Shown: positions 22,444-49,353, counted from the stretch's first letter. The stretch is DNA of 64,000 nt from Bdellovibrionales bacterium (GCA_041736155.1 JBGSUL010000018.1:2066-66065), one strand, 5' to 3'. Program-made: numbers and translations. The notes: generated from the sequence alone by a model not told the origin.

Positions 22444-23343
22444 TTACTTAGGTTCTACTAAGCCCCAAGAACGGAGTTGTTTACGGATACTCAAAGTCAT
22501 TTTTTCTTGAGGAGTGAGTACCCTTTGTGCAAGTTTTCCATCTGAATTATTAAGAGAAGCATAAATCGTCGATTGGGCATCGCTTGAACTGAACGTAGTT
22601 TCAAACTTTATTTTTTCACAATTGATTTGAAAGTTAGTCATCTCGTAGTCGTCGTCATTCGTGTTAAATACAACACTTTTGTAATCAGCCAAAACTTTAT
22701 ATTCAAGCTGACTTCGTTTGTCCGTGGTGCTTACGTTCATAACTCGGCAAGGGAATGACAAAGAAAGAGACGTCGCTTTATTTAGTTCAAGGTTAAGTGA
22801 CTTCTTGTAAGGAATTGAAAGTACATTTTCATCCCAACTAGATACTAGAAAGCTTGAGTTGTCAGACTTTCTAAGTTTAATAGAAAGTTCTATGTCAAAA
22901 TTGCGAGGCTTTTCTTTTTCTACTTCTTGCAGAACATTCAGATAAACTAAATACATGCCAAGATTTTCGTCATAAATAATTTTTTGAATGAGAAAGTTTT
23001 GTTTACCGTTATTCTCCGACAAATAAGCAAGTCCCGAATCTAGTTTTAACTTATGTTTATTAAAAATCTTTTTATCAAAAAAATGGCTTAAAAATTGACT
23101 CTTCTCCGAGGACGACGAATTTCGATCAATCTTATAATACTCCGATATCATATTTTTAATAAAAGCCGCTTCTTTCTCAATCTCCGGGGGAGACTCAATC
23201 TTTCCGAGTAGTTGACTTGAGTATTTATCGAAAGCAGCTATTAATCCAATCTCATTGTTAATTACATACAAAGATACCAAGAGTAGAGAGAAAACTACCA
23301 GAAATAGTAAATTTTTAAAAAAAGAAAAGATTCTACTTTTCAC
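22444..23343 (-). CDS. membrane-anchored hypothetical protein (last gene of the sensor operon)
   Basis: ORF track. N-terminal TM LLFLVVFSLLLVSLYVI. Overlaps the upstream gene by 11 nt. Confidence 0.5.
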   Translation of the reverse strand: MKSRIFSFFKNLLFLVVFSLLLVSLYVINNEIGLIAAFDKYSSQLLGKIESPPEIEKEAAFIKNMISEYYKIDRNSSSSEKSQFLSHFFDKKIFNKHKLKLDSGLAYLSENNGKQNFLIQKIIYDENLGMYLVYLNVLQEVEKEKPRNFDIELSIKLRKSDNSSFLVSSWDENVLSIPYKKSLNLELNKATSLSLSFPCRVMNVSTTDKRSQLEYKVLADYKSVVFNTNDDDYEMTNFQINCEKIKFETTFSSSDAQSTIYASLNNSDGKLAQRVLTPQEKMTLSIRKQLRSWGLVEPK

Positions 23344-23813: not shown

Positions 23814-25154
23814 CTAACTTTGTAGTCCAGTTTCTAAGAATTGAATCCTAACAGTCGTACCTTTGCCCAAAAAAGAGTCAATACTGATATTTCCACCCCA
23901 AGAATTCACCTTCTTTTTTACATAATAAAGACCAAGGCCGTTTCCATGGATTTTTCCTTTTGAAAAGTGCTCATCAAAGACTTTTGGTAGATCGTGTAGA
24001 GCAATTCCTTTGCCGTTGTCTTCTACTAAAACTAAAGCTTCTGTATTTTTTTGAATGATGGAAACTTTTATTGATTTGCTATTTTTATCTAAAGCTTCAA
24101 TTCCGTTCTTAATGAGATTCGCAAAGACGCGCTTAAAATCTTTCCTATTCACTTTGAGTAATAACTCGCTAGGTGCGACAATTTCAAATGAGACATTTGT
24201 GTTGAACCTCATTACTCCTTTAACAAGTTCTTGGCATATGGGAACAATGTCGATCAATTCTATTTGCTGACTGATAAACTGAGATTCTCTTTTATGAGTT
24301 TCCATGAGGTCAGATAAAATATCTTGTACGCGCTGATTATTTGTAGACAGTACATCTAACAAATCGTCATTTAAAAAATTGTATTCTTTCAATTTAATTT
24401 TTTCTTTTAATATATTGATATTACTTTGATGATTGTAAATTGGCTCCCGAAGATCGTGGGCCAATGTTTTGATAAAACGAGATACTTCTTTTTCCATTCC
24501 AAGCTGAGTTTGAACTTCTGAAAGTTCGACTCTTGCTTCGACTCCGGCAGAAAGAAGCTCAATAATTTTATTTGTCTCGCGGTCTTCACTTCTGAGTGGA
24601 GTGGTTAGGGATGGATTTTCGTTCCATTTTTTAAGCGTGTCTATGGTGGTGTTCAGGGACTTTTTATAACCCATTAAAGGCTGGAGAGCTATTACGGCAA
24701 AAAGTATCAATACCAGAACAAACGCAAATGCAAACGTAGTGGTGCTAAATGTGCCTTGGATAAGAGCTGAGGTTGCTAGGCAGGTTTTAACGGGGCCGAC
24801 CAAGATTCCTCTAAAGGTGACGTCAGCTTCAAATGGTCGATCACAAGAAGCAAGAATCTGCGATGAATTATCAGGCCAGTTAAACACAAGTTTTTTACTA
24901 TAATAAACTTCGTATGCAGAAGTGTTAAAAGATTTAAGTACCATGAAGGCATCAGAAGTTGCCTTGGTGTTCTTATTTTCTAAAATGTTTTCCGCTAATT
25001 CATACTCTCTCTGCTGAATGTAGGATGAGATACTATTTTTCGACTCATCAATCTTTTTATAGAAAAGAAAAATAAAAAGTCCCGACACTAGACCTAGTGA
25101 GGTCAGGAGAATTAAGAAGGTAGATTTTTTAAATAACCACAGACTCTTAATCAT
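23814..25154 (-). CDS. sensor histidine kinase (two TM helices flanking a periplasmic domain)
   Basis: H-box TLAHDLREPIYN, G1 VEDNGKGI, G2 GNGLGLYYVKK. Confidence 0.8.
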   Translation of the reverse strand: MIKSLWLFKKSTFLILLTSLGLVSGLFIFLFYKKIDESKNSISSYIQQREYELAENILENKNTKATSDAFMVLKSFNTSAYEVYYSKKLVFNWPDNSSQILASCDRPFEADVTFRGILVGPVKTCLATSALIQGTFSTTTFAFAFVLVLILFAVIALQPLMGYKKSLNTTIDTLKKWNENPSLTTPLRSEDRETNKIIELLSAGVEARVELSEVQTQLGMEKEVSRFIKTLAHDLREPIYNHQSNINILKEKIKLKEYNFLNDDLLDVLSTNNQRVQDILSDLMETHKRESQFISQQIELIDIVPICQELVKGVMRFNTNVSFEIVAPSELLLKVNRKDFKRVFANLIKNGIEALDKNSKSIKVSIIQKNTEALVLVEDNGKGIALHDLPKVFDEHFSKGKIHGNGLGLYYVKKKVNSWGGNISIDSFLGKGTTVRIQFLETGLQS

Positions 25155-25163
25155 TAAAATTCC

Positions 25164-28034
25164 TTATTTACAAACTTTCGCGGTCGAAACCATTTTTGAG
25201 AATCCATATTTTGAATCGAGCGTCTGCAAGTAATTTATCATACTGCTGTCTTGATTTGCCAAAACGCAAACATTCCAGTCTTTTAGAAATTGAAGTTTTG
25301 CTTGTTGATGAGTTTCTTTATTAAAAGGAGATGTTTTACATTTTTTGCCAAAGTATAGTACATTTGGGTTTAAAAGATCTGTTATCAGATTGGAGTCTTC
25401 GTCTTCGTCTTTATCTTTTAATAAAAGTGTGCCCATCATTGAGTATCCACGACGAGAAAATTCTACGGAATAGGTGCCACTAACTGTGGCAACCATATTT
25501 ACTGGCTCACAGGAATCAGACGATTGAGAGATGAATGTGTCAGACACATCGTTTTCGATATGATTAGATGTAAATGATCTGAAAAAATCAGACTCTGCTT
25601 GCGAAAGGATTTTTCCTGAGCACGATTTGTTCAATAAAGATTCTAAAGCAACAAATGAACCAATAGTCGTCCAATCTTTAATTTCATTATCAGTGACATT
25701 TTCAAAGCGACACTGGACATCTGATGAAGGGATCGGAGATTGAAAAGAATCTAAAACTTTTGAAAATGATGGAAACTCATCAAGGGCATTAGCCCCAGCA
25801 ACAACACTCATGAGTTCATAAATTGAAATTGGATTTATGCCAGTTAATTTTGCATTTTCTAAAAGCAAAAGTTCTTTAATAATTTTTTGCCAAAACTCTT
25901 TATCTGTTGATAGGTACGCGTACACGGGACTAACTACAAGATTACTATAGCTGATGGGCATAAGAGTAATTCCAAGAGAATCTGTTGTTGCATACTTGCC
26001 TTTTAACGAGTTTTCGATATTTTCTTTTCCAGCCCAGAGTAAAATACTTAGTGGAAGCATTTGCTGGGTTGGGAATAATTTTTGATTTATTGTTGCCCCT
26101 TTTTCAACAACGGAAATTGCGAAGGATTCGTTTTGAAATATTCTAAATACTTGTTTTAAGATCGGCATTAAAGTTCCGACCGCATCTTCGGATGACTTTT
26201 TGGCTTCAAAAATATGGAGCACAAGTATCCATGGGAGACTCATTTTAATTTCCCCACCAACTGCATCAGAAATCGCCAATTTATCATTAAAATTTTGTCC
26301 TATAGTAGAAATCACATTGGACTTGAGTAAAAGCTTATTCAGCGTATTCCAAGTAGTATTATTTTTTATTGAATACATCAAAAGAGAGTGAATCAGCGTT
26401 ATTTTTTCTTCTTCAGGAAAAGAGTTAATAGGATGATCCGATAGAGCAACCAAGTAGTCCACCACCTCAACGTAAGAAGTGTCATTTTGCTCTACGATCC
26501 TTGAGACTGCATTGGTGAGTGCTGCTGCGCCGAAACTATTATCAAACGGAAGTCCAGACTGTTTCAAAGAAATGAGCTGAGATTGTGCAAAAGGACCTGT
26601 TTTGGATTCTACGACGGCAACCTCGATAGCGTCAGTTTGCTCCGACGGGTCAAAGGGAATATTTGATTCTGTGAGGAGGCTTAGAATGCCTACATTGTTA
26701 TTTTTAACAGCCGCAGCGAAAGCCCCTTTTGGAATTTTCCCAGAATAGTTTAAAGTGAAACTTACAAGATCTGTCTTTTGACTTAATGTTAAGTTCGATA
26801 CAATAATCTCTGAAAGAGTATTTGTTGAGGATCGATCCGTAGTATAGTCTAAAAATAAACTCACAATTTCCGTATAGGTCTTTTTATCAAGACCTTCCGC
26901 AAATCCCACTTTAAGAGTATTCAGTGAATGCTGATCGAGCGAATATCCTGATTTTTCAAGGCTACCTTTTCTCCAAGTGGTCAGAATGTCTTTGATAAGC
27001 ATTGATTTTTTAGCTGTACCAGTGGATGAAAATGTGACACTTAGCACATCTTCAGTGAATGAGTTTTTATGACTTGCCGGAAAATTAAGTTTTAAAAATG
27101 AAGAATGAATAGCAACAACGCCGCTACTGTCATTTTGTATAGAGGTCTTAATAGAGTTCTGTGCAAGATTGTTTAAAAATTCAAAATTAAGAATGACCCG
27201 CTCTGTTGAGGCAATTACTTCGATTTGCTTTGAAAGCCAATTAGGGTTCTGAACAGAGTCTTCAACTTTTAAGTCCTCTACTTTGATTCCATCTGTAAAA
27301 GCAAGGTCTACAACTACAATGGTGTTCTTCTGAACTCTCGCTGCATCAACGGCATCAATTAGATAAGAGAAAAATTCAGGATTTTCCATTTTATTAGACG
27401 CGATTAGCAGTCGTTCTTGATTTTTAAGAACATCGAGTGACTCGTAAGATCGGCCTTCGATAAAATATTTGAGTAAGTCCTCAGCTCTGTCAGAGGGGCC
27501 GGAAATAAAAATAAATGGGTACTCGATTAATGTTTGTGTAGCCATTGGTAAGCTAAAAGGAATATTATTTTTTTTGATAATCGAAAGCACTACGTCAAAC
27601 TTTGAATCTGTTAAATTTTTAGCAATTGCAGTGGTCATTACCGAAATACTTTTTTGAAACAGTTTTTGTATTTCAGTGTCGTCCTTATGGATTTTGCTGT
27701 ACGCAGTTTCTTTTGGACTATCTTTAATTGATACAAATGGCATAGCATTGGCTTTTAAAAGCATTTCCACTAGAACTGCGTCGCGCATCTGCACTGAACG
27801 AATCAAGACTGTGTTGCCCTGGGCATCATACTGTTCAAGGTCAGTACCAGTATTGATTAATGCTGCAACTGATTTGTAGTCTTTTTTGAGAACAGCATCA
27901 AAAAGTTCGTTACTTAATTCTGAATCAGACTTCTTTTCAGGAACTTCAACAATTCTAGGAGGGACCTCTTCTTTAAATGAGCAACTTGCTAACGCCAGCA
28001 CAAAGATAATTATAATTCCCTTGCAGTATTTCAT
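25164..28034 (-). CDS. large (956 aa) lipoprotein with N-terminal ankyrin repeats
   Basis: Lipobox LALASC. The ankyrin-like stretch LFDAVLKKDYKSVAALINTGTDLEQYDAQGNTVLIRSVQMRDAVLVEMLLKANA. The rest has no recognisable family. Confidence 0.65.
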   Translation of the reverse strand: MKYCKGIIIIFVLALASCSFKEEVPPRIVEVPEKKSDSELSNELFDAVLKKDYKSVAALINTGTDLEQYDAQGNTVLIRSVQMRDAVLVEMLLKANAMPFVSIKDSPKETAYSKIHKDDTEIQKLFQKSISVMTTAIAKNLTDSKFDVVLSIIKKNNIPFSLPMATQTLIEYPFIFISGPSDRAEDLLKYFIEGRSYESLDVLKNQERLLIASNKMENPEFFSYLIDAVDAARVQKNTIVVVDLAFTDGIKVEDLKVEDSVQNPNWLSKQIEVIASTERVILNFEFLNNLAQNSIKTSIQNDSSGVVAIHSSFLKLNFPASHKNSFTEDVLSVTFSSTGTAKKSMLIKDILTTWRKGSLEKSGYSLDQHSLNTLKVGFAEGLDKKTYTEIVSLFLDYTTDRSSTNTLSEIIVSNLTLSQKTDLVSFTLNYSGKIPKGAFAAAVKNNNVGILSLLTESNIPFDPSEQTDAIEVAVVESKTGPFAQSQLISLKQSGLPFDNSFGAAALTNAVSRIVEQNDTSYVEVVDYLVALSDHPINSFPEEEKITLIHSLLMYSIKNNTTWNTLNKLLLKSNVISTIGQNFNDKLAISDAVGGEIKMSLPWILVLHIFEAKKSSEDAVGTLMPILKQVFRIFQNESFAISVVEKGATINQKLFPTQQMLPLSILLWAGKENIENSLKGKYATTDSLGITLMPISYSNLVVSPVYAYLSTDKEFWQKIIKELLLLENAKLTGINPISIYELMSVVAGANALDEFPSFSKVLDSFQSPIPSSDVQCRFENVTDNEIKDWTTIGSFVALESLLNKSCSGKILSQAESDFFRSFTSNHIENDVSDTFISQSSDSCEPVNMVATVSGTYSVEFSRRGYSMMGTLLLKDKDEDEDSNLITDLLNPNVLYFGKKCKTSPFNKETHQQAKLQFLKDWNVCVLANQDSSMINYLQTLDSKYGFSKMVSTAKVCK

Positions 28035-29545
28035 GGCTTCTCCTGCTGAATATTTCCAAAGAACTTATATTTTTTGGAATATAATGTATTTTCATTTATT
28101 TTTAAAATTTCAGCTTGTTTACGATTTTTTGATGAGACCGACATAGCTTCTTCAATAGCATTTTTTTCAATCAAGTGAGTTACATCATCAAGGCCGAGAT
28201 GATTGTCTTGCTGAACGAGTCGCTCTGCAATTTTTCTAATCAAGACTTCTAGTGGTTCAAAATCTCTCATTTTAACTGATTTTTTACCATCTACTTGTAT
28301 AAGAATATTTTTCCACATGGAGTAGTCTCGTTTGCCATTTGGTTTAAGTGGACAAAAAATAAAAACTCTTTCAAGTTCGTTTCTTATACCTCGAATGTTA
28401 AATGGTATGTAATCACTTTGAAAATGTTCTTTGAGTGATTGCGGAAAATCAGTATAAGAAAAATCTTGTTTGTGTTCTCTCTGAATTTCATTGGTAATGA
28501 GCTGACAAATATAAGGTAAATCTTCTTTACGTTCTTGTAGGGACGGCATATTTAGGCTGACAATGCTGATTCTAGCGTAGAGGTCGGAACGAAAATATCC
28601 TTGCTTTACCATTTCTTCTAAATTTTTGTTTGTAGCGTATATGTTTCGAGCATTCATTTTGATGTCTGTGTTTCCACCTACGCGACGGAAACTTTTCTCT
28701 TCAATGACCTTAAGCATACTTCCTTGCAGTTCCAGGGAGGCATCTCCAATTTCATCTAAAAAAAGATCCCCGCCAGCAGCGGCTTCAAAAAGTCCTTGTT
28801 TTCTTTCGTTAGAACTTGTGAATGAACCCTTTTCTGAACCGAATAATTCGGATTCGATCAGTGTTTTAGGTATAGAATTTATATTGACGTTTATAAACGG
28901 TCTTTGCTGCTGTTTATTTGCTTCTTTTGTTAATTGGCTTAATCGTTTGGCGGCATGTGTTTTTCCGAGTCCTGATTCTCCAAGAATTAAAACAGGCGTA
29001 TTTACTGAGGCTAGGGTCTTTAACTTAAAGTCAAAATCCTGCATTGCTTTTGACTTCACTATGTATGTGCCTGAATCAGTTTCACCTGTTGTCTTTTGAG
29101 AAAAAAGTTCGAGTTCAGTTTTTGCAGACTTTAGAGCGTTGAGAATTTGTTGGTCGCAGTACAGTTGATTATCAGCAGACGGTTTTTTTGATACATATCC
29201 TAATGCACCATATTGCATGGCTTTGACAGCAGCATGAACATCCTCGCAGGCAGTAATTACTAATATTTTAGAGCGAGGACTAATCTCTAGGATATTTGGA
29301 ATTTCATCAATGCCATCAATTCTGTCGCCGTCCGGCGTTTCGCCCAGATCCTTATCGAGAAGAATCACATGAAATGTTTCTTCTCTGATTTTAAAGCGCA
29401 TTTCTTCAACTGTGGTGGCTGTCTTTATATTAAGAAGGCTCTTATCAAGACTTTTAAAGATGGAAGAGACTCTATAATGAAGAGTAAATAGAGTATCTTT
29501 GTGATCATCCACAATTAAAATGCTGACCTGATCTCGACTATTCAT
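28031..29545 (-). CDS. sigma-54-dependent response regulator (NtrC-family bEBP: receiver + AAA+ + Fis-type HTH)
   Basis: Receiver ILIVDDHKD...HVILLDKDLG. Walker A LILGESGLGKTH. ESELFGSEKGSFTSS (variant GAFTGA loop). GGDLFLDEIGD. C-terminal NRKQAEILKINENTLYSKKYKF. Confidence 0.85.
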   Translation of the reverse strand: MNSRDQVSILIVDDHKDTLFTLHYRVSSIFKSLDKSLLNIKTATTVEEMRFKIREETFHVILLDKDLGETPDGDRIDGIDEIPNILEISPRSKILVITACEDVHAAVKAMQYGALGYVSKKPSADNQLYCDQQILNALKSAKTELELFSQKTTGETDSGTYIVKSKAMQDFDFKLKTLASVNTPVLILGESGLGKTHAAKRLSQLTKEANKQQQRPFINVNINSIPKTLIESELFGSEKGSFTSSNERKQGLFEAAAGGDLFLDEIGDASLELQGSMLKVIEEKSFRRVGGNTDIKMNARNIYATNKNLEEMVKQGYFRSDLYARISIVSLNMPSLQERKEDLPYICQLITNEIQREHKQDFSYTDFPQSLKEHFQSDYIPFNIRGIRNELERVFIFCPLKPNGKRDYSMWKNILIQVDGKKSVKMRDFEPLEVLIRKIAERLVQQDNHLGLDDVTHLIEKNAIEEAMSVSSKNRKQAEILKINENTLYSKKYKFFGNIQQEKP

Positions 29546-29625
29546 TGCCCCGTAACCCCTTTTGAACCCGATAACTGTATATGCTTAAAATATAGGCTCC
29601 GCAAGTCATGGTGTAAAAGTTATAA

Positions 29626-29708
29626 AAAAGTCTTTAAATTTCGTGACTGTCTGTCTTGAATTTTAAAATTTAAAGACTTTCTAAGAGTCACGAAATTTAA
29701 AGACTTTT
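29626..29708. promoter_or_regulatory. 23-bp perfect inverted repeat (candidate activator UAS) plus extra half-site copies
   Basis: AAAAGTCTTTAAATTTCGTGACT (29626-29648) is the exact reverse complement of 29686-29708. A third copy, AATTTAAAGACTTT, lies at about 29668-29681. Related AAAGTCTTTTAA / GTTAAAGAC lies at 29791-29811. Confidence 0.5.
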
Positions 29709-29752
29709 AACTTTTCTATTTAAAATTGGGTATTTAAGTGATGGCAGGTCTT

Positions 29753-29768
29753 TGGCACTCCTTTTGAT
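29753..29768 (+). promoter_or_regulatory. sigma-54-type (-24/-12) promoter candidate for the tra operon
   Basis: TGGCAC-tcctt-TTGAT has the consensus TGGCAC-N5-TTGCW spacing. The -12 element is GA instead of GC. It lies about 87 nt upstream of ATG 29855 and about 45-125 nt downstream of the inverted repeats. Confidence 0.5.
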
Positions 29769-29854
29769 ATATGTCGGTTTGACTGAATAGAAAGTCTTTT
29801 AAGTTAAAGACAAAAAATCAGATCGTTTTGAACTTGAAAGAAAAAGGAGAATTT

Positions 29855-30070
29855 ATGATCGAACATGTTTTAGAAAAAATGGAGCCAACCAACATTAACG
29901 AGGTGAAGACAATTGTACGCACCTGGTATGGGAATCTGCCCATAGAAATCCTCGTTTTAAATAAGCGACTTCAACAAGCCATCATGGAATTTGAAAAAAC
30001 GTGCGAACGTGGCAGTTTTGATTTCGTGAGCTTTACCGAAGAGCCTCTTGCTCTTAGCGCCTCGGAGTAA
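29855..30070 (+). CDS. small hypothetical protein (first ORF of the tra operon)
   Basis: AAAAGGAG SD before ATG 29855 (MIEHVLEKMEPTN...). No family recognised. Confidence 0.4.
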   Translation: MIEHVLEKMEPTNINEVKTIVRTWYGNLPIEILVLNKRLQQAIMEFEKTCERGSFDFVSFTEEPLALSASE

Positions 30071-30073
30071 GCC

Positions 30074-30238
30074 ATGGATCAGCTTCGATTGATTGTGCTT
30101 AAAATGTTTAAAATATCAGATGAAGATCGTACAGAACCCGTTTCTGAGTTTGAACTTATCCTTCGAGACAGAATTAAAGAAGTTCTTGGGTTCTATTCAA
30201 ATAAACAAAATATGAAGGTTGTTAAAAATGGAAAGTAA
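30074..30238 (+). CDS. small hypothetical protein (54 aa)
   Basis: Manual translation: MDQLRLIVLKMFKISDEDRTEPVSEFELILRDRIKEVLGFYSNKQNMKVVKNGK*. It starts 4 nt after the previous stop and overlaps the next start. Below the ORF-track size cut-off. Confidence 0.3.
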   Translation: MDQLRLIVLKMFKISDEDRTEPVSEFELILRDRIKEVLGFYSNKQNMKVVKNGK

Positions 30239-33203
30239 CAAAGACATCAATATTGCAATCACAGGAATATTATTCGTCCTTGTTTTATCTTTCTTATGGA
30301 TTTTAACATTAAAAGCAGGAATTTTTGAGTCTGTTAAAATTATCCAAGCTTACTTTTTAGTAAAAGGTGGAGCATTTTCATTTGTGATTTTAAAAGTGAT
30401 CGTAGTTTATTGCCTTGCCATATTTTCCATCTTGAGTTTTCTAGGAATTGGCGAGTTTGGTAAAAAAATATCTTCCTATAAAAAAACAAAAGATAAAAAA
30501 GAAATCTTTCCGACTGTTATTTCATTCCTTACGGGCCTCATTTCAGGTTGGCTCTTAACAAAATATATAAGTCTTGTTCAGTTGATAGTGCCACTCCCGA
30601 ACATCATACCTTATGAACAGATCAAAATCCTCATCGCAACAATCAATGGTGCTGAAGCGTTATCCGTGGGGTTTTTATTTACTCTCCTTACAAAGAGTCT
30701 GATTAAATTTAATTTCTTAAAAATAGACCGCATTCCAATGATTCCAACACAAAAAAATAAATTAGTTATCGGCACTAAAATCGAAGGTGATGAAGAGAAT
30801 TGGATTGTTCTTGGTGAAAAATCGCTCTCAACAGGTCTACTAACTACTGCTTCTACTGGGAGTGGTAAATCAAGTGCATGTTTGCTTCCTTGGACAAAAC
30901 AAATATTAGAAAATTTTGAACCTAAGCCTTCGATTGTAGTGATTGATGCTAAAGACTCGTTTGCGAGAGACGTTGTAAAGCTCGCTAAAGGGTTAAAGCG
31001 CGATAGCGATCTAGTGCATTTCACGATGGATGGTTCATTTAGAACAAACGTCATCTATCAAAAAGACATACTTAAAAACAGCGGTTATTCAAAAGTGGCG
31101 TCGATGATCCAAGCTGCCACTGACAACTATATGGGGAAACAGACTGGCGAGAGTAAATTCTGGGGTGTGAAGGGCTATACATTCTTAAAGAATATGGTCA
31201 TTTACTGTGCAGGTAAATACGGTGATTATTTCACCCTAAGAGACTTTTATGAGGAAATTATTAAAAGCACAAATTGCGACTATGCTCTTGAGATTGACTC
31301 TTTTTTGCTGAGCGAAAAATTAGATTGGGAAGAAAAGAGAAACCTAGAAATCGCTCAAAGTTACTTTGAATATGAATTCGCAAAACTTGATTCAAAACTT
31401 AAAGACAGCATTGTTCAGTCAGCATCGACATTCCTTGCTCTCTTGAGAGATGCTAAGGTTGAAAAAATATTTTGTCCTAAAAAAGAAGATGTCACATTTT
31501 GGGGATTTGATGAGATCGTAGATAATGGTAAAATCTTCGTTTTTGGAATAGATATACCTGGTCTGTCAGCGCCAATGGCGATTTTGATGAAACTCCTTTA
31601 TCAAAGATCAGTGCTAAATCGAATTAAAGAACCTCAAAGACTTTTAAATAAGCGTCTCAGTGTTGGCATCTATGATGAGTATCAATCTATAGTAACTACA
31701 GGCGGCGGGCAAATCGAAGGCGACGATGATTATGCAGCAAAACGTCGAGAGGCATTGGGTGTAACGATTGCAGCTACACAGTCTTTAAGCTCTCTTGCGC
31801 AGGCCATTGGTAATGATATGGGCCTTGATACGCTTATTCAGAACTTTAGAAATCAGGTCATAGGTCACTCAAAGGACAAGAGAACGGTCGAGTATTGCAA
31901 ATACTTTGCAGGAGAGATCGAGCGCGTGACAGAGAGTAAAAGTTTTTCTGAATCTGGCTCAAATCCATTAAAAAATCTCTTTGGAGGAGGACTTACAACA
32001 TCAAAGCCAACCGTCAGCCAGTCCCTCAATCAGAATGTGCAGAACATTCCACGCATAAATGGTGAAACTCTAAGTACGTTAAGTATTAACGAGGCCGTTG
32101 GGTTTTTCTTTGACGGCGCAAATTCATTTTTCGTCGAAAAAGTGGGTTTAAAACCAAATTATCTAAATAGCATGAGAACAACTCATGCTGATGTTTTGGC
32201 CTTTAGCAGAAAAGCAGCAGCTGTATGTTTGGCTTTATTCATTACTCCAAAAGTTTTTGGAAGCCCTACGGTATGTAGTGCTGTAAAAATGCCGACCTAT
32301 GAAATGTGTATGGAATACAACACGTCTCCGTGCATGTGTGGCGGCACACCGCCTAGACCATGTGTGAGACACTCCTATTATTTCCCACAATCCTTTATTG
32401 AGGTTACAACAGCGGCTAATAAAAGTTTTTTTTCAGAAATCCCAGGAGCGGCAGTTCAAATGTCGTCAGGTTTTCTAGATTCCGTCAGTCATGGAGCCGA
32501 TGACATGGGTGGGTACTTTTATCATGCAAGAATTATCCAGATCCCTTTAAGTAGCTTTGGTTACGAAGGGTTTGCTTGCGGTGGTAATAAGCAAGAAAAG
32601 CTCTGTTTCGATGCTGTATCTGAGCATGTTGATAGTTGGAAGACCGGAATCGCCGATCAATTACAGCCTCAGTACCTTGCTTGGAAAATGGCGATCCCCC
32701 TTTGTTACAAAAAAGCTTTAAAAAATGCCGTTATAGGCGATACCCCCAACCCCCCTTTACAAAATTCCTTGAGCTGTGGGTTCCCACTGAAATCTATCAA
32801 GGTGTTTCCCCCATCCATGAGCGAACAATGCACTGGATGGGGGACTCTTTTTCCTAGAACGGGTTTTGTTGAAAGCTCAAGCTCTGTAGGTGCTGCCCTA
32901 CTGGCTGCAAAACGTCTTAGAAGCTTGGCAAGTGATGTTTATAGATCAACTCCAATGTCGCCGGATGAAAAATGGAGTCTTGTTTACCCAAACTCCTCAA
33001 GCTGCTTTCGAGAAGGTAAATCTCTAGGAGAAATCGAAACAATGCGCGGAGCAAATGAGCTTGGGAGACTTTCAAAAACAAATCATCAGACCTTTTTGTT
33101 TGCTGTGTGGAAAAGAGTGAGCTGTTGCAAGGACTTTGATTCTATACCAGAAACAGCGGCTTCCAAGGTGGCGCTAAAAGCAATTTGCCAAGGGATGGAA
33201 TAA
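30228..33203 (+). CDS. type IV coupling protein (VirD4/TraD/TraG family) fused in frame to a TraU-like domain
   Basis: N-terminal TM helices. Walker A TASTGSGKSSACLLP and Walker B VGIYDEYQS. From aa ~652 comes a signal/TM-like segment (MRTTHADVLAFSRKAAAVCLALFITPKVFG), then TraU-like motifs: YYFPQSFIEVTT, GGYFYHARIIQIPL, CTGWGTLFPRTGFVESSSS, FLFAVWKRVSCC. Confidence 0.75.
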   Translation: MESNKDINIAITGILFVLVLSFLWILTLKAGIFESVKIIQAYFLVKGGAFSFVILKVIVVYCLAIFSILSFLGIGEFGKKISSYKKTKDKKEIFPTVISFLTGLISGWLLTKYISLVQLIVPLPNIIPYEQIKILIATINGAEALSVGFLFTLLTKSLIKFNFLKIDRIPMIPTQKNKLVIGTKIEGDEENWIVLGEKSLSTGLLTTASTGSGKSSACLLPWTKQILENFEPKPSIVVIDAKDSFARDVVKLAKGLKRDSDLVHFTMDGSFRTNVIYQKDILKNSGYSKVASMIQAATDNYMGKQTGESKFWGVKGYTFLKNMVIYCAGKYGDYFTLRDFYEEIIKSTNCDYALEIDSFLLSEKLDWEEKRNLEIAQSYFEYEFAKLDSKLKDSIVQSASTFLALLRDAKVEKIFCPKKEDVTFWGFDEIVDNGKIFVFGIDIPGLSAPMAILMKLLYQRSVLNRIKEPQRLLNKRLSVGIYDEYQSIVTTGGGQIEGDDDYAAKRREALGVTIAATQSLSSLAQAIGNDMGLDTLIQNFRNQVIGHSKDKRTVEYCKYFAGEIERVTESKSFSESGSNPLKNLFGGGLTTSKPTVSQSLNQNVQNIPRINGETLSTLSINEAVGFFFDGANSFFVEKVGLKPNYLNSMRTTHADVLAFSRKAAAVCLALFITPKVFGSPTVCSAVKMPTYEMCMEYNTSPCMCGGTPPRPCVRHSYYFPQSFIEVTTAANKSFFSEIPGAAVQMSSGFLDSVSHGADDMGGYFYHARIIQIPLSSFGYEGFACGGNKQEKLCFDAVSEHVDSWKTGIADQLQPQYLAWKMAIPLCYKKALKNAVIGDTPNPPLQNSLSCGFPLKSIKVFPPSMSEQCTGWGTLFPRTGFVESSSSVGAALLAAKRLRSLASDVYRSTPMSPDEKWSLVYPNSSSCFREGKSLGEIETMRGANELGRLSKTNHQTFLFAVWKRVSCCKDFDSIPETAASKVALKAICQGME

Positions 33204-34747
33204 TGTTTGGTCAATTTTTGGTAGATCAAAAAATTATCAATCAGGCGCAGCTTGATGAGGCATTAGAGGATCAAAAAGTTTCACATGAAAAGCTCGGTCG
33301 AATTTTAATGGCTCAAACAGTCCTAGAAAAAGGACAGCTAGATCAGACGTTATTAACTTATTTAAAAATTGAAAATGCACAGTCTCTTTTAGAAACATAT
33401 AAAGATTCAAAAAATCTTACAAAGGTATTCCTCGGAGAAAAAGTAATTGGTTTTCTGTCGAATGGTACAAAACATCTCTATATCGAAGTATTTTGCGACG
33501 ATGTATTGGTAGAATTAGAAAAAAGGCACTCATTCAAAAAAATCGAATTAATAACAAGTGACCAAAGTAAGTATCTTTCAGGACTTTTTGAAACAAAAGA
33601 TAATAGTCAAAGAGTCGAAAAACCAAAAATATACGGTCCTTTCGATAAGTTTTTATCAAGTGTGTTTGACGAAGCCAAGAAACTTAAGGCCAGCGATATT
33701 CACTTTGACGTGGAAGAGCATGGTCTCAGCGTCCGGTTGAGAGTTCACGGCGATTTGATTGAGTTTAAAAAAGTTGAAAAATCACATGTTCAGTCTTTGA
33801 TGACAAAAGTAAGGAGCGAGGTGGGGCTCCCGCTATCCGTCGTGGGTCGCCCTGCGAGCGGTTCCCGAAATCTTGAGGAATATGGGGTAAAGGTTCGTTC
33901 GGAGTATGCTCCTGAAACTCTTGGAGAAACCATCGTTTGTCGAATTATTGATAACGAAAAAATTAAAAGTGCAAAGATCGAAAATATTGGCGCGGATATT
34001 CTATTTACAGAAAGCTTAATAAAATCTCTCAAAAGAAAAAACGGCCTTATTCTTCTTTGTGGTCAAACAGGGAGCGGTAAATCACTGACTCTTTTTTCAG
34101 CACTTATGTCTCTTGATCGCTTGAGAAAGAAGATAATCACGATTGAGGACCCAGTTGAGTATGAGGGAAATGGTCTTACGCAAATTGATGTGAATAAGCA
34201 CAAGCTTACTTTTAGCGAAGCCTTGAGGTCTAGTCTCAGGCTTGATCCAGATGTGATCATGGTTGGTGAAATACGAGATGAGGAGACTGCAAGTCTTGCG
34301 ATGAGAGCATCGTCCACGGGACATCTAGTGCTAAGCACACTTCATACTAACAGCGCCATAGGGGCTATTAGTCGTTTAAGCGGGATGGGCGTAAAAGAAG
34401 ACGTTTTAGTGGAAAACGTGATTCAAATAAGCGCATTAACTCTTAAAAAAGAGCTGTGTCAAAGGTGCAAAATTCCTATCACCGACTGGAAAGATAAGGA
34501 CACTGAGGCTGAGTTTTTGTCCCTACAAGCCAACAATACAATTTTTTATGAGCCAAACCCAAGTGGCTGCGAGTTTTGTACTCAGGGCCATATTGGTCGA
34601 AAACTTTTAACAGAGACCATTGACTCTGATGTGGTTTATTCAAAGGTTTTTTCTAAAAATAGTGAGGGATATAGGACTTTACTGGATTGCGGAAAAGAGT
34701 ACGCAAGTCTTGGGATTATTTCCCCCTATGAAGTGGTGGGATTATGA
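33203..34747 (+). CDS. GspE/PilB-family secretion ATPase with a T2SSE_N/MshEN-like N-terminal domain
   Basis: Walker A LLCGQTGSGKS. TIEDPVEYE. RLDPDVIMVGEIRDEETA. His box LVLSTLHTN. C-terminal CQRC...CEFC tetracysteine. N-terminus FGQFLVDQKIINQAQLDEALEDQ / KLGRILMAQTVLEKGQLDQTL. TAATG overlap with the upstream gene. Confidence 0.85.
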   Translation: MFGQFLVDQKIINQAQLDEALEDQKVSHEKLGRILMAQTVLEKGQLDQTLLTYLKIENAQSLLETYKDSKNLTKVFLGEKVIGFLSNGTKHLYIEVFCDDVLVELEKRHSFKKIELITSDQSKYLSGLFETKDNSQRVEKPKIYGPFDKFLSSVFDEAKKLKASDIHFDVEEHGLSVRLRVHGDLIEFKKVEKSHVQSLMTKVRSEVGLPLSVVGRPASGSRNLEEYGVKVRSEYAPETLGETIVCRIIDNEKIKSAKIENIGADILFTESLIKSLKRKNGLILLCGQTGSGKSLTLFSALMSLDRLRKKIITIEDPVEYEGNGLTQIDVNKHKLTFSEALRSSLRLDPDVIMVGEIRDEETASLAMRASSTGHLVLSTLHTNSAIGAISRLSGMGVKEDVLVENVIQISALTLKKELCQRCKIPITDWKDKDTEAEFLSLQANNTIFYEPNPSGCEFCTQGHIGRKLLTETIDSDVVYSKVFSKNSEGYRTLLDCGKEYASLGIISPYEVVGL

Positions 34748-35418
34748 TGATCATTATAGTCATCTCACTTCTTCATGCTGAGTATTTTGACCAAAACATT
34801 GAGTATTTTAAGGACCAGACAAAAGCTATTGAGACAAAGAAAAATTTAGAAAAAAAAGAAAAGAAGTTTGATTGGAATACCCATCTTGATAAAAAAAACG
34901 ACGAGTTTTTCAAAGAAGGAGACTATATTCCACCAGCTCCGTTTCTTGAAGCAATGAGACGTCCCACGAAGAAAAATATTCTTCTTTTTGAAAAATGGCA
35001 TGAGAAAAAGAACTTTTTGCTAAAAAGATTCAATGAAAAACGTGCCGAAGTTCTGGGTCGCCCTGTAGTTTCTGAAGAAAAATCAACCGATAAAGAAATT
35101 TCTCTAGATTTGAAAAAATATACTTTTATTTTCTACTTTGATTCCATGTGTTCGTCATGCCGTGGAATGTTTGAAGTTGTAAATGACATGGTAACTCAAG
35201 GGATTTTTATCGAGGCTGTCAGGGTCGATAGTCTTGAAACTGTTGTGCAAGGATTATCCATCCCTTGGACGCGAGCATCTAAGAAGGAAATTGAACAAAC
35301 AAAGATTACAGCAGTTCCTATGCTCCTAGCTTTTGAGAAAGAAACAAAACGAGCATTTAAGATAGTAGGCAAAAAATCAGTTTATGAAATAAATGAAATT
35401 TTAAAAAATCAAAAATAA
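34744..35418 (+). CDS. thioredoxin-fold conjugal transfer protein (TrbB/TraF-like)
   Basis: YFDSMCSSCRGMFEVV contains a CxxC motif in a thioredoxin-like context. The position in the tra operon fits. ATGA overlap upstream. Confidence 0.6.
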   Translation: MMIIIVISLLHAEYFDQNIEYFKDQTKAIETKKNLEKKEKKFDWNTHLDKKNDEFFKEGDYIPPAPFLEAMRRPTKKNILLFEKWHEKKNFLLKRFNEKRAEVLGRPVVSEEKSTDKEISLDLKKYTFIFYFDSMCSSCRGMFEVVNDMVTQGIFIEAVRVDSLETVVQGLSIPWTRASKKEIEQTKITAVPMLLAFEKETKRAFKIVGKKSVYEINEILKNQK

Positions 35419-35427
35419 AGGAGAAGT

Positions 35428-35817
35428 ATGAAAATTTTAAGAAAGATTTTAAAAATATTTAATTGGGATCTAATGACGCTACTTTTGCTGTTAGCATTTG
35501 TGCTTTTCCTCTCATCAAAGGCATCGGCGATAAATATCAGCGGAGAGGATATTTCTGGAGATATGGAGACAGTGGGTAGTCTTTTTAAAACAGCGGATAC
35601 GATGACCTTTGGTTGGGCGTCGCCCCTAATTGCGGGGATATTCATTATTATCGGCTGCGTAGGTCTTATTCGATCAAACTTTATGGTGTTTTTTCTCTGT
35701 TTTACAGCAGCCATTCTCATTTTGCTTGTTCCAAAGATTGTTTCCGAGCTTCGTAGAAAGGGCGGAGATTCGGTCATTAACGCCAAGGCCGTATTTCTAG
35801 AGAAACACTATGTTTGA
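35428..35817 (+). CDS. candidate T4SS pilin (TraA/VirB2-like)
   Basis: Long leader ending SSKASA, then two hydrophobic helices (WASPLIAGIFIIIGCVGLI; FMVFFLCFTAAILILLV). Sits directly upstream of the traL-like gene, as in F. Confidence 0.5.
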   Translation: MKILRKILKIFNWDLMTLLLLLAFVLFLSSKASAINISGEDISGDMETVGSLFKTADTMTFGWASPLIAGIFIIIGCVGLIRSNFMVFFLCFTAAILILLVPKIVSELRRKGGDSVINAKAVFLEKHYV

Positions 35818-36121
35818 TTACAAGAAGATCAAAAGAGAACACGCAAAGGTTACTAATAGAGTCTTATCTGAACCAATCATGGTATTTGATTTTTTGGAGC
35901 TCAAAGAGGCATTACTTGGTGTATTTTTGTTCTTTTATTTTGGCATTGTGGATACAAAGCCATTTTTGCTTCTTACACTACTTTTTTTACTAGTGTTTAT
36001 ATGGCCTCCGTTTAGAGAAAAAATTCCAAGGGGATATCTCCTCCACAAGATATCCAGATATTCGCCAGTAAAAATACCAAACTTTATTGGTGTCAACGGT
36101 TCTTCAAAATTAAGAGTATAG
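35810..36121 (+). CDS. traL: TraL-like small membrane protein
   Basis: 103 aa with a central hydrophobic hairpin (ALLGVFLFFYFGIV...LLLTLLFLLVFIW). F-like gene order pilin-traL-traE-traK-traB. Confidence 0.55.
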   Translation: MFDYKKIKREHAKVTNRVLSEPIMVFDFLELKEALLGVFLFFYFGIVDTKPFLLLTLLFLLVFIWPPFREKIPRGYLLHKISRYSPVKIPNFIGVNGSSKLRV

Positions 36122-36130
36122 GAGTTCATA

Positions 36131-36517
36131 GTGATTTCTGAATATAAATTTTTAGACGTTTGTGAAGTTTGCGATAGCCGCGAACTTGATTTTGTTCTCT
36201 TTGACTTGAAAGCATTTAAGGAAAATTCGTACATTATTCGCGACATTCCAGGCTTTAGGTGCAGAGATTGTGGAGAGCTTCTTATATCAAATGGGGTGAT
36301 TGAGATTTTAGACGAAATTAAACCCATCAATTCAATTGTCGTAGAATTTCCCGTAAATCAGTATCAGAGCAAAATTATGAAGCTTCAAAAAATGGAACGT
36401 GAGATTGCAGAAAGGTACTTACACTCTTGGAATTTGATAAAGGAGGATGGTCGAGAGTTTTTAGAAAAAATAGGATTAAGAAGTATTGGTGACTGGCAGC
36501 AAATAGCAAATACCTAA
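36131..36517 (+). CDS. YgiT/MqsA-type zinc-ribbon protein
   Basis: CEVC...(F)RCRDCGE double CxxC arrangement. GTG start after a TAGGAG SD. Confidence 0.45.
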   Translation: MISEYKFLDVCEVCDSRELDFVLFDLKAFKENSYIIRDIPGFRCRDCGELLISNGVIEILDEIKPINSIVVEFPVNQYQSKIMKLQKMEREIAERYLHSWNLIKEDGREFLEKIGLRSIGDWQQIANT

Positions 36518-36533
36518 AAAAGGAGAAATTCTA

Positions 36534-37052
36534 ATGGAAGCAAAAAAACAAGAAACTAAACAGAAGATCGAAAAACAGGAAAACGTTGAAGTTAAGTTTG
36601 TTGACGTTTCAGTGAGTGTTTTAGGCGAAATGAAACAAAAGAAATTTGTAAAACTTGAGAAAGTTGGTTTTAGTCCAGAAAGAGGGAACATTTTTGTTCA
36701 TCTTGACGAAAGACACACGCTGTTGTTTAAAAACGGATTTTTGAAAAATTATTTAAAATACGACATCGAACAGGCCTCAGAAGTAGAAAAGTCCGTTATG
36801 AAAACCCCAACTTTTGGTGGGAAGGAACCTTCGGTCTCTAAAGTGCGTATGAAGGTCTTAGGAGAGAGTAACGATCGAAAGCGTACATTTGTCGGTCCAA
36901 TGGGTTCTGTGGAATATGATGCCCGCTATAAGGGTTTAAAAATCAATCTTGATAGTCAGCATATGACGATCATTGATGGTCAAACTTTAAGTAAAGAACT
37001 TGGAATTAAGATTGTTCCACAGAGTTTAGAAAAAAGTTCTCTTTCACGCTAG
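36534..37052 (+). CDS. hypothetical protein (no signal peptide)
   Basis: ORF track. AAAGGAG SD. No family recognised. Confidence 0.4.
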   Translation: MEAKKQETKQKIEKQENVEVKFVDVSVSVLGEMKQKKFVKLEKVGFSPERGNIFVHLDERHTLLFKNGFLKNYLKYDIEQASEVEKSVMKTPTFGGKEPSVSKVRMKVLGESNDRKRTFVGPMGSVEYDARYKGLKINLDSQHMTIIDGQTLSKELGIKIVPQSLEKSSLSR

Positions 37053-37062
37053 GAGCATTTAT

Positions 37063-37842
37063 ATGAATTTTTCGACTTTGATGAATAGAGCTGTTGTTCA
37101 ATTCTCGCCTCTTCGCGATGATCTTGTAGATTTTGTTAAAAAAGGAGCAAAACGCCGAGAAACGAAAATTAAACTCAAAGACTTAACAGAGGCAAGGCTT
37201 AAAAAGATTCCAAACTACATTGCCGTTGAAGTGGCAAAACAGAAGATCAGTCTCACAAAGGATGCCTTAATTGTAGGACTTTTGAGTTTGGTTTTAATCC
37301 TTATGTATTCGGTAACGAATCTTGCAAGCAAGATGGATGAACGAATCGTGGCTCTTATTCCAAGTCGAATTGAGAAAGCAACAGAGGTGCAGCCGAATCA
37401 GATTAGTCCGGCTGCACTTTACAGCAAACTTTCATCTTTTATCAGTTTGCTCGGCAATATCGACCATGGAAACGTTGATTTTAATTACGAAGTGCTGCGC
37501 GGTCTGATGTCTGACGAGTTAAAGGTTAAATTTTGGGCAGACTCCACCCAGCTCAGGAAAATTGTGAAAGAAAAAAGCATGAGTCAGACCATAAGCTACG
37601 ACATGAAGGATATGAGTGTTGGTAGCCGTGGGAAAACGATAAGCGCGCTGGTGAAAGTGAAGATCAAGCCCATGTATGGTGATGAGCTTGGGAAAATCCG
37701 TGAAGAATACATGCTTCTTGAGGGAACTGTTGTTGTGAAAAAAGAAGATAATTTTTGGGAGATTGAACTATTTAATCTTGAGCAAGGTCCGTTGAGCGAT
37801 ATTGCAAAAGTTAAACGTCGAATTGAAGGCGGCTTAGAATGA
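37063..37842 (+). CDS. traE: TraE-like bitopic T4SS protein
   Basis: Single TM LIVGLLSLVLILMYSV, followed by PAALYSKLSSFISLLGNIDHGNVD... as in F TraE. Synteny supports the call. Confidence 0.55.
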   Translation: MNFSTLMNRAVVQFSPLRDDLVDFVKKGAKRRETKIKLKDLTEARLKKIPNYIAVEVAKQKISLTKDALIVGLLSLVLILMYSVTNLASKMDERIVALIPSRIEKATEVQPNQISPAALYSKLSSFISLLGNIDHGNVDFNYEVLRGLMSDELKVKFWADSTQLRKIVKEKSMSQTISYDMKDMSVGSRGKTISALVKVKIKPMYGDELGKIREEYMLLEGTVVVKKEDNFWEIELFNLEQGPLSDIAKVKRRIEGGLE

Positions 37843-38624
37843 TGAATTTAATTCTACTTCTTTCATTATGTTTGGGTGCCTATGCAAAAGATCTACGATT
37901 TGGATCAAAGACTTTAAAAGTGTCAGTTCGTTGGGAAATGATTGACCCTATGAATCCATCTTTGGGGCTCAAGCCTACTTATTTGAGATTTACAAAGCCT
38001 GTATATCGTTTCGACAACATCACTTTGTTTTCGCTAGAAGCGGTGAAGAGCAGAAATGGTTCATCAGATTTTCGTGAATTTAAAATATTGCCGAGAAAAT
38101 CTCTTGGTCATCAAACTGTAGAGATTCAACTTCAGGATCGAACTCTTGTTACGGTGGATTTCTCTGTTTCAAGGGAAGAATCGACACCGTTATCGTATGA
38201 TTTTAAGCCTGAGAAAATACCTGACTTAAATGATTCGAGCGAAAGAGTTTATACAGATGTCGTTATAATGAAATCTATCCTTTTAGGGCATAATCTCTAT
38301 GGGTTTGAAAAGAAATCAGAAAAGGCTAATTTAGCTTGTGGCGATAGAAACGTAAAAGTCGAGGTAAGCAGTCATCTTGAGGGACATGGGTTTAAGATTT
38401 TTCAAGTAAAGGTCTTTAATCTTTCAAAAAAAGATTCTTATAGTTTTATTCCCGAAAGTGTTGGTTTTGAAAAAAGAGACTTTTCAAAATCCGAATTAAA
38501 GCATTTTGAAAAAGAAGCATTATTGCCGCAGAAAAATGCGATCGTGACGATTGTTGTAGATATAGGTGCAAACATTAATTTTCTGAAAATCTGTAAAATT
38601 GGATCTCAACTCAAAAAATCTTAA
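37839..38624 (+). CDS. traK: TraK-like (VirB9-class) periplasmic T4SS protein
   Basis: Signal peptide MMNLILLLSLCLGAYA. Position between the traE-like and traB-like genes. ATGA overlap. Confidence 0.5.
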   Translation: MMNLILLLSLCLGAYAKDLRFGSKTLKVSVRWEMIDPMNPSLGLKPTYLRFTKPVYRFDNITLFSLEAVKSRNGSSDFREFKILPRKSLGHQTVEIQLQDRTLVTVDFSVSREESTPLSYDFKPEKIPDLNDSSERVYTDVVIMKSILLGHNLYGFEKKSEKANLACGDRNVKVEVSSHLEGHGFKIFQVKVFNLSKKDSYSFIPESVGFEKRDFSKSELKHFEKEALLPQKNAIVTIVVDIGANINFLKICKIGSQLKKS

Positions 38625-38644
38625 GAGAATCTAAAGGAATTTTT

Positions 38645-40067: not shown

Positions 40068-40079
40068 GGAGATAGGAAA

Positions 40080-42560: not shown

Positions 42561-42564
42561 TAGT

Positions 42565-42918: not shown

Positions 42919-42925
42919 GAGTTTT

Positions 42926-43381: not shown

Positions 43382-43390
43382 GGGAGCATT

Positions 43391-48403: not shown

Positions 48404-48430
48404 ATAAATAATTTTAATAAGGAGAGGTAT

Positions 48431-49210: not shown

Positions 49211-49353
49211 TAGGAAAATCGTACCCTAAAGGTGAAAATGGGTAGGAGATTTTCCTACATTCTTTGTAAATGTATGATTTTACTGTATATTTAACGATAG
49301 TACGAAATCCACCCATTTTAGTATTTGGGTTGAGCTTGTGCCCTTTTACTCAT

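Follow-up and report, generated by a model that had tools for sequence, protein, structure and literature searches.

A likely sigma-54 promoter and enhancer upstream of a conjugative type IV secretion operon in Bdellovibrionota

Described enhancer-dependent systems and the present locus

Enhancer-dependent transcription has essentially no basal activity and requires ATP hydrolysis by a signal-activated ring. Conjugative transfer genes are usually described as being under repressors, quorum-sensing activators, FlhDC-like activators or SOS-type derepression. Here, we report on a 309-bp noncoding gap (positions 29546-29854) in a 64,000-nucleotide stretch of DNA from a Bdellovibrionales bacterium (GCA_041736155.1, JBGSUL010000018.1:2066-66065), which was analysed at its full length and is referred to as the window. 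The gap is flanked by a minus-strand open reading frame (ORF; 28031-29545) encoding an NtrC-family activator and by a plus-strand ATG at 29855, which opens an operon for a type IV secretion system (T4SS). Drawing on the comparison with related loci, we consider it likely that the gap comprises a bacterial enhancer and a sigma-54 promoter that drive the T4SS operon of an integrative and conjugative element (ICE) of Bdellovibrionota. With essentially no basal activity and an ATP-driven ring, such a promoter would give the element a tight, all-or-none choice to build its costly transfer machine.

In the NtrB/NtrC system of enteric bacteria, the archetype of a two-component bEBP (bacterial enhancer-binding protein) acting with sigma-54, the NtrC sites at glnAp2 lie at ~-140 and -108. 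The window shares with this system an activator composed of a receiver, an AAA+ domain and a putative Fis-like helix-turn-helix, a histidine kinase, and multiple dyads ~80-140 bp 5' of a -24/-12 element; the logic we propose (a ring assembled on the DNA, a loop, and promoter opening driven by ATP) would be the same as well. It differs from glnAp2 in its target, a T4SS on a mobile element, in its membrane kinase with a periplasmic loop and two lipoproteins, and in its activator L1 loop (GSFTSS), its -12 doublet (GA) and an extra perfect dyad at ~+24. PilS/PilR acting on pilA likewise combines a membrane kinase and a receiver-type bEBP with a sigma-54 promoter and a surface filament system, and many database matches to the window's activator are annotated as PilR. 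Identity to PilR is, however, ~36-40% over the AAA+ core, and the target in the window is a whole T4SS operon rather than a pilin gene.

Other envelope machines are known to be governed by a neighbouring bEBP: the T6SS (type VI secretion system) of Vibrio cholerae by VasH (PMC3439928), and two divergent type III secretion system (T3SS) operons on the Desulfovibrio plasmid pDV1 by DVUA0100 (PMC4641369). As in the window, these activator genes are embedded beside the machine they control, with divergent orientation, sigma-54 promoters and a predicted activator motif upstream. In pDV1, this arrangement is even plasmid-borne. The targets of VasH and DVUA0100 are a T6SS and T3SSs, while that in the window is a conjugative T4SS accompanied by a relaxase and an integrase. 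VasH, moreover, is not known to have a receiver domain.

RteB of the Bacteroides element CTnDOT is presumably a regulator of the NtrC class. RteA/RteB is the nearest precedent for conjugation, being an element-borne two-component system required for transfer (PMC3809561, PMC5812530). RteB differs in that it stands at the top of a cascade (rteC, the excision operon, tra) instead of acting directly on a T4SS operon. Its induction proceeds by translational attenuation of tetQ-rteA-rteB, and no -24/-12 promoter is described for the RteB target in PMC3809561 and PMC5812530. Two Bacteroidales matches to the window's activator (H6 and H8) are not tetQ-rteA-rteB loci: both show a regulator-kinase pair with no tetQ upstream, and housekeeping genes surround one of the two.

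Full-text literature searches for a link between sigma-54, rpoN or bEBPs and conjugative systems, T4SSs, tra operons or ICEs returned no relevant paper, in keeping with a preliminary description of this DNA, which was not aware of enhancer-dependent control as the usual logic of F-type systems. Two surveys of sigma-54 regulons list flagella, pili, type II secretion systems, T3SS, T6SS and the cell envelope, with no mention of T4SS or conjugation (PMC3162934, PMC12316311), and in an ICE review RpoN appears solely in a reference on nif genes. What the locus suggests thus appears to be a known enhancer-dependent switch newly applied to conjugative T4SS operons and conserved in a Bdellovibrionota element family. 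Wiring of this kind, conserved across many Bdellovibrionota elements and two T4SS types, would add conjugation to the functions under sigma-54 control, and a defined promoter, enhancer and sensor would provide a handle on the cue that sets off gene transfer in predatory bacteria, whose use as living antibiotics is under consideration.

The -24/-12 element and its conservation

The following features were recognised in the gap; distances "from GG" refer to the GG of the -24 half of the predicted promoter.

29556-29617, minus strand: conserved activator-proximal block, with TTTACA-17-TATATT at 29617-29589 and a GGGG ribosome-binding site at 29556-29559
29630-29647, no strand: putative upstream activator site, distal, GTCTTTAAATTTCGTGAC, a quasi-dyad within the left arm of the repeat (29626-29648), centre ~-116 from GG
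29666-29680, no strand: putative middle site, AAATTTAAAGACTTT, a half-site copy, centre ~-86 from GG
29687-29704, no strand: putative upstream activator site, proximal, GTCACGAAATTTAAAGAC, within the right arm of the repeat (29686-29708), centre ~-59 from GG
29753-29768, plus strand: predicted sigma-54-type -24/-12 promoter, TGGCAC-tcctt-TTGAT, from direct reading, consensus scan and conservation
29794-29811, no strand: perfect dyad GTCTTT-N6-AAAGAC downstream of the promoter, ~+49 from GG and ~+24 from the predicted start

Direct reading and a consensus scan agreed with the preliminary description in placing TGGCAC at 29753-29758 and TTGAT at 29764-29768 with exactly 5 nt between them, so that GG falls at 29754-29755 and GA at 29766-29767. 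Compared with TGGCAC-N5-TTGC, the element shows a single difference, A for C at -12, and its TGGCAC half is perfect. The -12 position (29767) and the ATG at 29855 are on one strand and 88 nt apart, the ATG being preceded by AAGGAG (29843-29848); transcription is predicted to start at ~29779, leaving a 5' untranslated region of ~76 nt. Across both strands of the 64-kb window, we found six sites that match the sigma-54 consensus perfectly or depart from it at a single position. As 2.41 are expected by chance, a single match somewhere in the window is unremarkable; the expectation for such a match on the correct strand within the 309-bp gap is ~0.006. Scanning the plus strand between the repeats and the ATG returned no sigma-70-like match, which bears out the earlier impression that no such signal is as clear. 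An Rfam search of the gap yielded no family above threshold; the only candidates for a known RNA element were sub-threshold microRNA-hairpin artefacts due to the repeat, and these were discarded.

Comparison with related loci carries the interpretation. Six close loci (L082-L087), whose activators are 63-79% identical to that of the window, all have the same divergent layout, and we aligned their intergenic regions with the window's (alignment A2, seven regions, mean column identity 42%). TGG[CT]AC-N5-TTGA was invariant in 7/7 loci while the neighbouring DNA drifts (invariant element columns T208, G209, G210, A212, C213, T219, T220, G221 and A222). Invariant columns concentrate in two blocks, namely the -24/-12 element and the ~60 bp adjoining the activator start. 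Since the GA at -12 is shared by all seven loci, it represents a conserved variant and not decay.

A more distant set comprised 12 loci with activators 35-50% identical to the window's. In these, a GG-N10-G[CT] element was sought on the divergent strand, up to 600 bp away from the activator start and allowing no more than two mismatches. The element was present in eight of the 12, at 200-520 bp from the activator start. In total, nine matches fell within 7.2 kb, against 0.55 expected from the rate in the other 316 kb of these loci (Poisson P ~7e-9). Three of these loci (L006, L008 and L010) carry a fully canonical TGGCACG-N4-TTGC, and the -12 doublet in distant relatives is GC or GT; a locus found later (L088) reads TGGTCC-N5-TCGC. 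Being invariant in close loci and recurrent in distant ones, the -24/-12 element supports the assignment of the gap as a sigma-54 promoter region.

Several observations weigh against this assignment. Despite the exact spacing between GG and the -12 doublet, the latter reads GA instead of GC, and does so throughout the window's clade; judged from the window sequence by itself, the promoter is therefore only suggestive. Matrix scoring, as envisaged in the preliminary description, did not single out the window site: a matrix derived solely from the nine sites of distant relatives placed it 65th of 127,970 positions, so the case rests on conservation, not on the raw match. The L1 loop of the activator (residues 241-246; window ~28810-28827, minus strand) is GSFTSS rather than GAFTGA, and in Salmonella NtrC substitutions at the fifth and sixth positions of GAFTGA abolish activation. 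A Pfam scan of the activator called no HTH_8. Between enhancer and promoter, no consistent consensus for integration host factor was apparent, a strict site occurring only in L087 and none in the window. Finally, the 64-kb window contains neither rpoN nor an RpoN box, hence no element-borne copy there. In favour of the assignment, rpoN has been reported within the lineage, both for Bdellovibrio bacteriovorus HD100 (bd0843; PMC3464611) and for Bacteriovorax marinus SJ (PMC3526173).

Some of these points would suit an activator of the sigma-54-independent NtrC type (like Rhodobacter capsulatus NtrC, or of the NtrX type), which would bind the dyads and act on a sigma-70 promoter, with TGGCAC...TTGA being kept for some other reason. 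This is what the GSFTSS, GSFTNS and GSYTNA loops of the window clade and the GA at -12 could be taken to indicate, and TTGATA (29764-29769) and TTGGCA (29752-29757) each resemble a -35 hexamer. We nevertheless regard it as unlikely: the phenylalanine and threonine of the loop that contact sigma-54 are kept, and the wider family pairs a canonical GAFTGA with a canonical TGGCAC-N5-TTGC at the same position. Besides, the 5-nt spacing from TGG[CT]AC to TTGA is invariant, no -10-like hexamer is conserved 16-18 nt 3' of TTGATA, and the plus-strand sigma-70 scan came out empty.

Under the sigma-54 assignment, the GA at -12 and the non-canonical counterpart of the GAFTGA loop may form a natural variant pair of the window clade. 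Loops in this clade follow GS[FY]T[SN][SA], such as GSFTSS, GSFTNS or GSYTNA (proteins P0001-P0007 and P0026, the last with GSYTSS), with the F and T kept, and the rest of the family has GAFTGA. A strict coupling of the GSFTSS loop to the -12 GA was rejected, as the activator of L088 (P0026) has GSYTSS yet its promoter has GC at -12. The pair would allow the interplay of the -12 fork junction with the L1 loop to be examined.

The activator and its candidate binding sites

The product of the divergent gene is a response regulator with the domains of an enhancer-binding protein, as the preliminary description had proposed for this neighbour.

28031-29545, minus strand: response-regulator enhancer-binding protein, 504 aa, with receiver, AAA+ sigma-54 interaction domain and putative Fis-like C-terminal helix-turn-helix

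Its match to PF00158 (Sigma54_activat) scores 181.1 bits against a cut-off of 20.2, and its Walker motifs (GESGLGKT, DLFLDEIG) are invariant across the family. The receiver (PF00072, 48.7 bits) includes D13, D14, D64, T98 and K120, all invariant or nearly so in the family. NtrC is the best NCBIfam relative (TIGR01818), with an alignment that extends to residue 491 and covers model positions 16-459 of 463, and a Fis-like pattern, NRKQAEILKINENTLYSKKYKF, is visible at the C-terminus.

Upstream of the -24/-12 element lies an inverted repeat, AAAAGTCTTTAAATTTCGTGACT (29626-29648) and AGTCACGAAATTTAAAGACTTTT (29686-29708), whose 23-nt arms are 100% complementary and 37 nt apart. A perfect repeat of 23 nt is far beyond chance. 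The preliminary description had called it a perfect 23-bp palindrome; the complementarity is indeed perfect over 23 nt, but the arms are separated and do not form a contiguous palindrome. The exact core TTTAAAGAC occurs three times in the gap (29630-29638 on the minus strand, 29669-29677 and 29696-29704) and six times in the window, against 1.76 expected, and degenerate copies lie at 29791-29805 and 29801-29811. At least three further core copies, as claimed originally, are not present: two of the three exact copies in the gap are inside the arms, which leaves one extra exact copy plus the degenerate ones. The claim that the repeat sits at the distance of an upstream activator site has fared better, in that the repeat is a member of a phased set of dyads whose positions are conserved across loci.

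Aligning the loci on GG revealed dyads of 16-18 bp at ~-116, -88, -59 and +49 in most of them, with half-sites specific to each locus. The distal site of the window (~-140 from the predicted start) is paralleled by dyads of differing half-site at -116 in L084, L086 and L087, the middle site by dyads centred at ~-88 to -94 in L082, L083, L085 and L086, and the proximal site (~-83 from the predicted start) by dyads at -59 (L083, L085) or -53/-54 (L086, L087). In four loci, the strongest inverted repeat is centred at -87 to -88.5 from GG, and its arm sequences differ. The spacing of ~28-30 bp would put three dimers roughly on one helix face, as the nucleation of a hexamer needs. Between enhancer and promoter lies a spacer of 45 bp, which is 71% A+T in the window and 71-86% A+T across loci. 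Downstream of the promoter, the dyad at 29794-29811, which had been overlooked in the preliminary description, is the sole zero-mismatch copy in the window and has counterparts in the locus's own motif at +48 in L082 and +51 in L083. It is a probable extra activator site, perhaps with a modulatory or repressive role. No other activator target was found in the window, the dyad motif being restricted to the gap 29546-29854. The dyads of the individual loci read as follows.

Window: GTCTTT...AAAGAC
L083: GTTTGA-N4-TCAAAC
L085: GTCCGA-N4-TCGGAC
L084: ATTCAG-N4-CTGAAT
L087: TTTCAT-N4-ATGAAA
L086: ATTTAA-N4-TTAAAT

Both halves of the dyad change together between loci, and the C-terminal recognition helices of the activators differ in the same loci. 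Fixed positions and half-sites co-varying with recognition helices support the view that the dyads behave as expected for activator binding sites.

Two further explanations concern the dyads themselves. One would assign the inverted repeat and its relatives to an origin of transfer (oriT) with relaxosome sites instead of an enhancer: inverted repeats are frequent in oriT regions, which commonly occupy a divergent intergenic stretch at one end of the transfer genes, and the gap just 5' of the mobC-relaxase genes contains no inverted repeat that we could find. That phased dyads should keep fixed distances to the -24 element in loci of different sequence is not oriT-like. L086, moreover, has another T4SS type and still shows the TTGA promoter, the dyad layout and the activator-proximal block of the window clade, so these features travel with the regulator and its module, not with the transfer machinery, which argues against an oriT. 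With arms 37 nt apart rather than in a tight hairpin beside a conserved nick sequence, we judged the oriT assignment to be highly improbable.

Alternatively, the sigma-54 promoter could be genuine and the dyads bound by another protein, be it the 71-aa or 54-aa product of the first ORFs or a host factor, while the activator acts from solution or from elsewhere. It is true that the strongest of the dyads is found downstream of the start, which is unusual for an activator site, and that in the VirB-type relatives the first gene past the promoter encodes a DNA-binding protein with a sigma-70 region 4. The upstream sites of the window, however, lie at classic enhancer distances, their half-sites vary in step with the recognition helix of the activator, and the 71-aa protein has neither a recognisable DNA-binding domain nor a sigma-70 region-4 domain; we hold this explanation to be quite unlikely.

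Sensory module, transfer operon and distribution

The activator gene belongs to a module of five genes, the other four of which lie downstream of it on the minus strand.

25164-28034, minus strand: predicted lipoprotein, 956 aa, with lipobox LALASC, a weak ankyrin hit and no Pfam family; co-operonic with the activator
23814-25154, minus strand: histidine kinase, 446 aa, with HisKA and HATPase_c domains, two predicted membrane segments and a periplasmic loop of ~100 aa
23333-23806, minus strand: probable lipoprotein, 157 aa, no Pfam hit; conserved module gene
22444-23343, minus strand: 299-aa protein, no Pfam hit; conserved module gene

We presume the kinase to be the cognate partner of the activator, and both lipoproteins (956 aa and 157 aa) are candidate envelope co-sensors of it. 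The large lipoprotein adjoins the activator also in L002, L004, L012 and L082-L088. The conserved block next to the activator start (A2 invariant columns 11-14, 33-39, 42-44, 57-59 and 67-71) is as conserved as the -24/-12 element and includes invariant stretches, TATATGC among them, as well as an imperfect GCTTA-N5-TAAGC dyad. Judged by its conservation and a sigma-70 scan, it probably provides the activator operon with its sigma-70-type promoter and leader, and possibly holds an operator as well.

Domains, motifs, positions, conservation and linkage together point to the following course of events, in which phosphorylation, dyad binding, sigma-54 dependence, the start site, the operon extent and the roles of the +24 dyad and the lipoproteins are proposed. 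The kinase, probably acting jointly with both co-operonic lipoproteins, would sense a cue in the envelope or periplasm and would phosphorylate D64 of the activator. Activator dimers would then bind the three dyads ~28-30 bp apart, at ~-140, -110 and -83 from the start, form the AAA+ ring and reach over the 45-bp spacer to the closed complex of RNA polymerase and sigma-54 at 29753-29768. ATP hydrolysis would open the promoter, with a start near 29779, and the transcript would span 29855-46151 and possibly continue into the relaxase genes. The fourth, perfect dyad at ~+24 would probably tune or repress the output. The activator operon itself would use its own sigma-70-like promoter, within the opposite-strand conserved block at 29576-29617.

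On the plus strand, the transfer region comprises the following genes.

29855-46151, plus strand: T4SS operon of 18 tightly packed ORFs, including 71-aa and 54-aa ORFs, TraF-, TraL- and TraE-like proteins and a TraC/VirB4 ATPase
30219-33203, plus strand: 994-aa coupling-protein-like/TraU-like protein, with weak TraD/TrwB signatures at ~389-615 and a TraU-like C-terminal segment at 874-971
33185-34747, plus strand: PilB/GspE-like ATPase (T2SSE), 520 aa, 270 bits
46327-48403, plus strand: MobC/NikA-like accessory protein and MobA/VirD2-type relaxase (PF03432, 83.8 bits)
51398-52633, plus strand: tyrosine recombinase (integrase), Phage_integrase 78.3 bits

As had been stated before, the gene string from 29855 to 46151 is uninterrupted, its genes overlapping or being separated by gaps of at most 20 nt, and no convincing intergenic terminator was found inside it. 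The 994-aa protein keeps its length in L082 and L083 (982-991 aa) and is therefore not a frameshift artefact. The earlier designation of the T4SS as F-type held only loosely. Two F-type markers exceed their Pfam cut-offs (TraC_F_IV with 50.1 bits against 28.1, TraU with 35.7 against 26.5); TraF (21.1 bits), TraL (20.4) and TraE (23.4) remain below theirs, nothing else from the F-type signature (TraL, E, K, B, V, C, W, U, N, F, H, G) was detected in the operon, and the NCBIfam model of F-type TraC scores 125.5 bits against a cut-off of 567. The PilB/GspE-like ATPase likewise tells against a plain F-type system, as such systems normally lack one. Given the MobC/NikA-like protein and the relaxase, the machine is conjugative, and a relaxase, a T4SS with TraC/VirB4 ATPase and an integrase all being present makes the element ICE-like; it is probably both conjugative and integrative. 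As flanking attachment-site repeats, a single candidate was found for its ends, a direct repeat of 16 nt, TTTGCATTTGGACCAA, at 17977 and 51347, which is doubtful because the integrase falls outside it. The window contains no tRNA gene.

The activator family was found only in Bdellovibrionota, namely in metagenome-assembled genomes (MAGs) of Bacteriovoracales, Bdellovibrionales and Pseudobdellovibrionaceae. The G+C content of the window (31-42%) is in line with the 36.75% of Bacteriovorax marinus SJ (PMC3526173). Fifteen loci contain sufficient upstream DNA, and in 13 of them the five-gene module is divergent from T4SS genes. These genes are F/G-like in the window, L082, L083, L085, L002 and L004, and VirB/Trb-like, with an ATPase of the TraC/VirB4 class, in L086, L088, L006, L007, L010, L011 and L013. 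The ATPase calls in the latter rest on hits to the TraG P-loop and TraC_F_IV, that in L006 being a weak similarity only and that in L086 a fragment; a TrbC pilin was called in L086 and L088, and TrbI in L088. Promoter, enhancer and five-gene module may be regarded as a cassette that appears attached to two T4SS types in related genomes. More tentatively, and with more doubt than confidence, we suggest that this cassette is portable and was recruited at least twice by different conjugative T4SSs in predatory Bdellovibrionota, that transfer is licensed by an envelope-contact or life-cycle cue (such as contact with prey or recipient), and that the private GA/GSFTSS pair, evolved in the window clade, alters the locking of the closed complex.

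Searches for more distant occurrences added little: further orthologous loci in JGI metagenome contigs gave nothing usable, no nucleotide similarity to PLSDB plasmids was detected, a fragment identical to the contig occurs in the Logan run SRR28170465, and in a protein search for plasmid-borne relatives all matches were below 60% identity (~29-35% among the matches listed). One Bdellovibrionales MAG carries three copies of the module, L002 and L004 on CBDHDF010000010.1 and L007 on CBDHDF010000011.1. Every copy adjoins T4SS genes, two of them F/G-like and one VirB4-type, which suggests several related elements in that one MAG genome. In four of the VirB/Trb-like loci, the first gene past the promoter encodes a protein with a sigma-70 region 4 (minus strand, locus coordinates: L006 7202-7672, L007 6637-7143, L086 2630-2908 and L088 7258-7803). 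This hints at a regulatory cascade in the VirB/Trb-type relatives, in which bEBP and sigma-54 would be followed by a sigma-like or helix-turn-helix factor.

Some minor observations concern the transfer genes and their surroundings. The N-terminus of the PilB/GspE-like ATPase (33185-34747) matches an MshE-type domain for binding cyclic-di-GMP (NF053729, 50 bits against a cut-off of 38), suggesting a second, post-translational input of this messenger to the transfer machine. Sigma-70-like matches are depleted in the T4SS and relaxase region (29800-49700), with 28 found against 46.9 ± 7.1 in shuffled sequences, as would fit selection against promoters inside an operon under tight gating. Past the integrase gene, a perfect sigma-54 consensus, TGGCACAGTAATTGC (TGGCAC-N5-TTGC), lies on the plus strand at 56953-56967, 36 nt 5' of an ATG. 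The ORF that follows (57003-57647) has an AAGGAG ribosome-binding site and encodes a 214-aa protein with an isochorismatase domain. The site is probably a host sigma-54 promoter and, being a perfect match, would indicate that the host uses canonical sigma-54 sites. Lastly, 3' of the relaxase gene, 49360-50854 contains an AbiEii nucleotidyltransferase toxin (50018-50854) and a preceding 223-aa ORF, which may encode its antitoxin.

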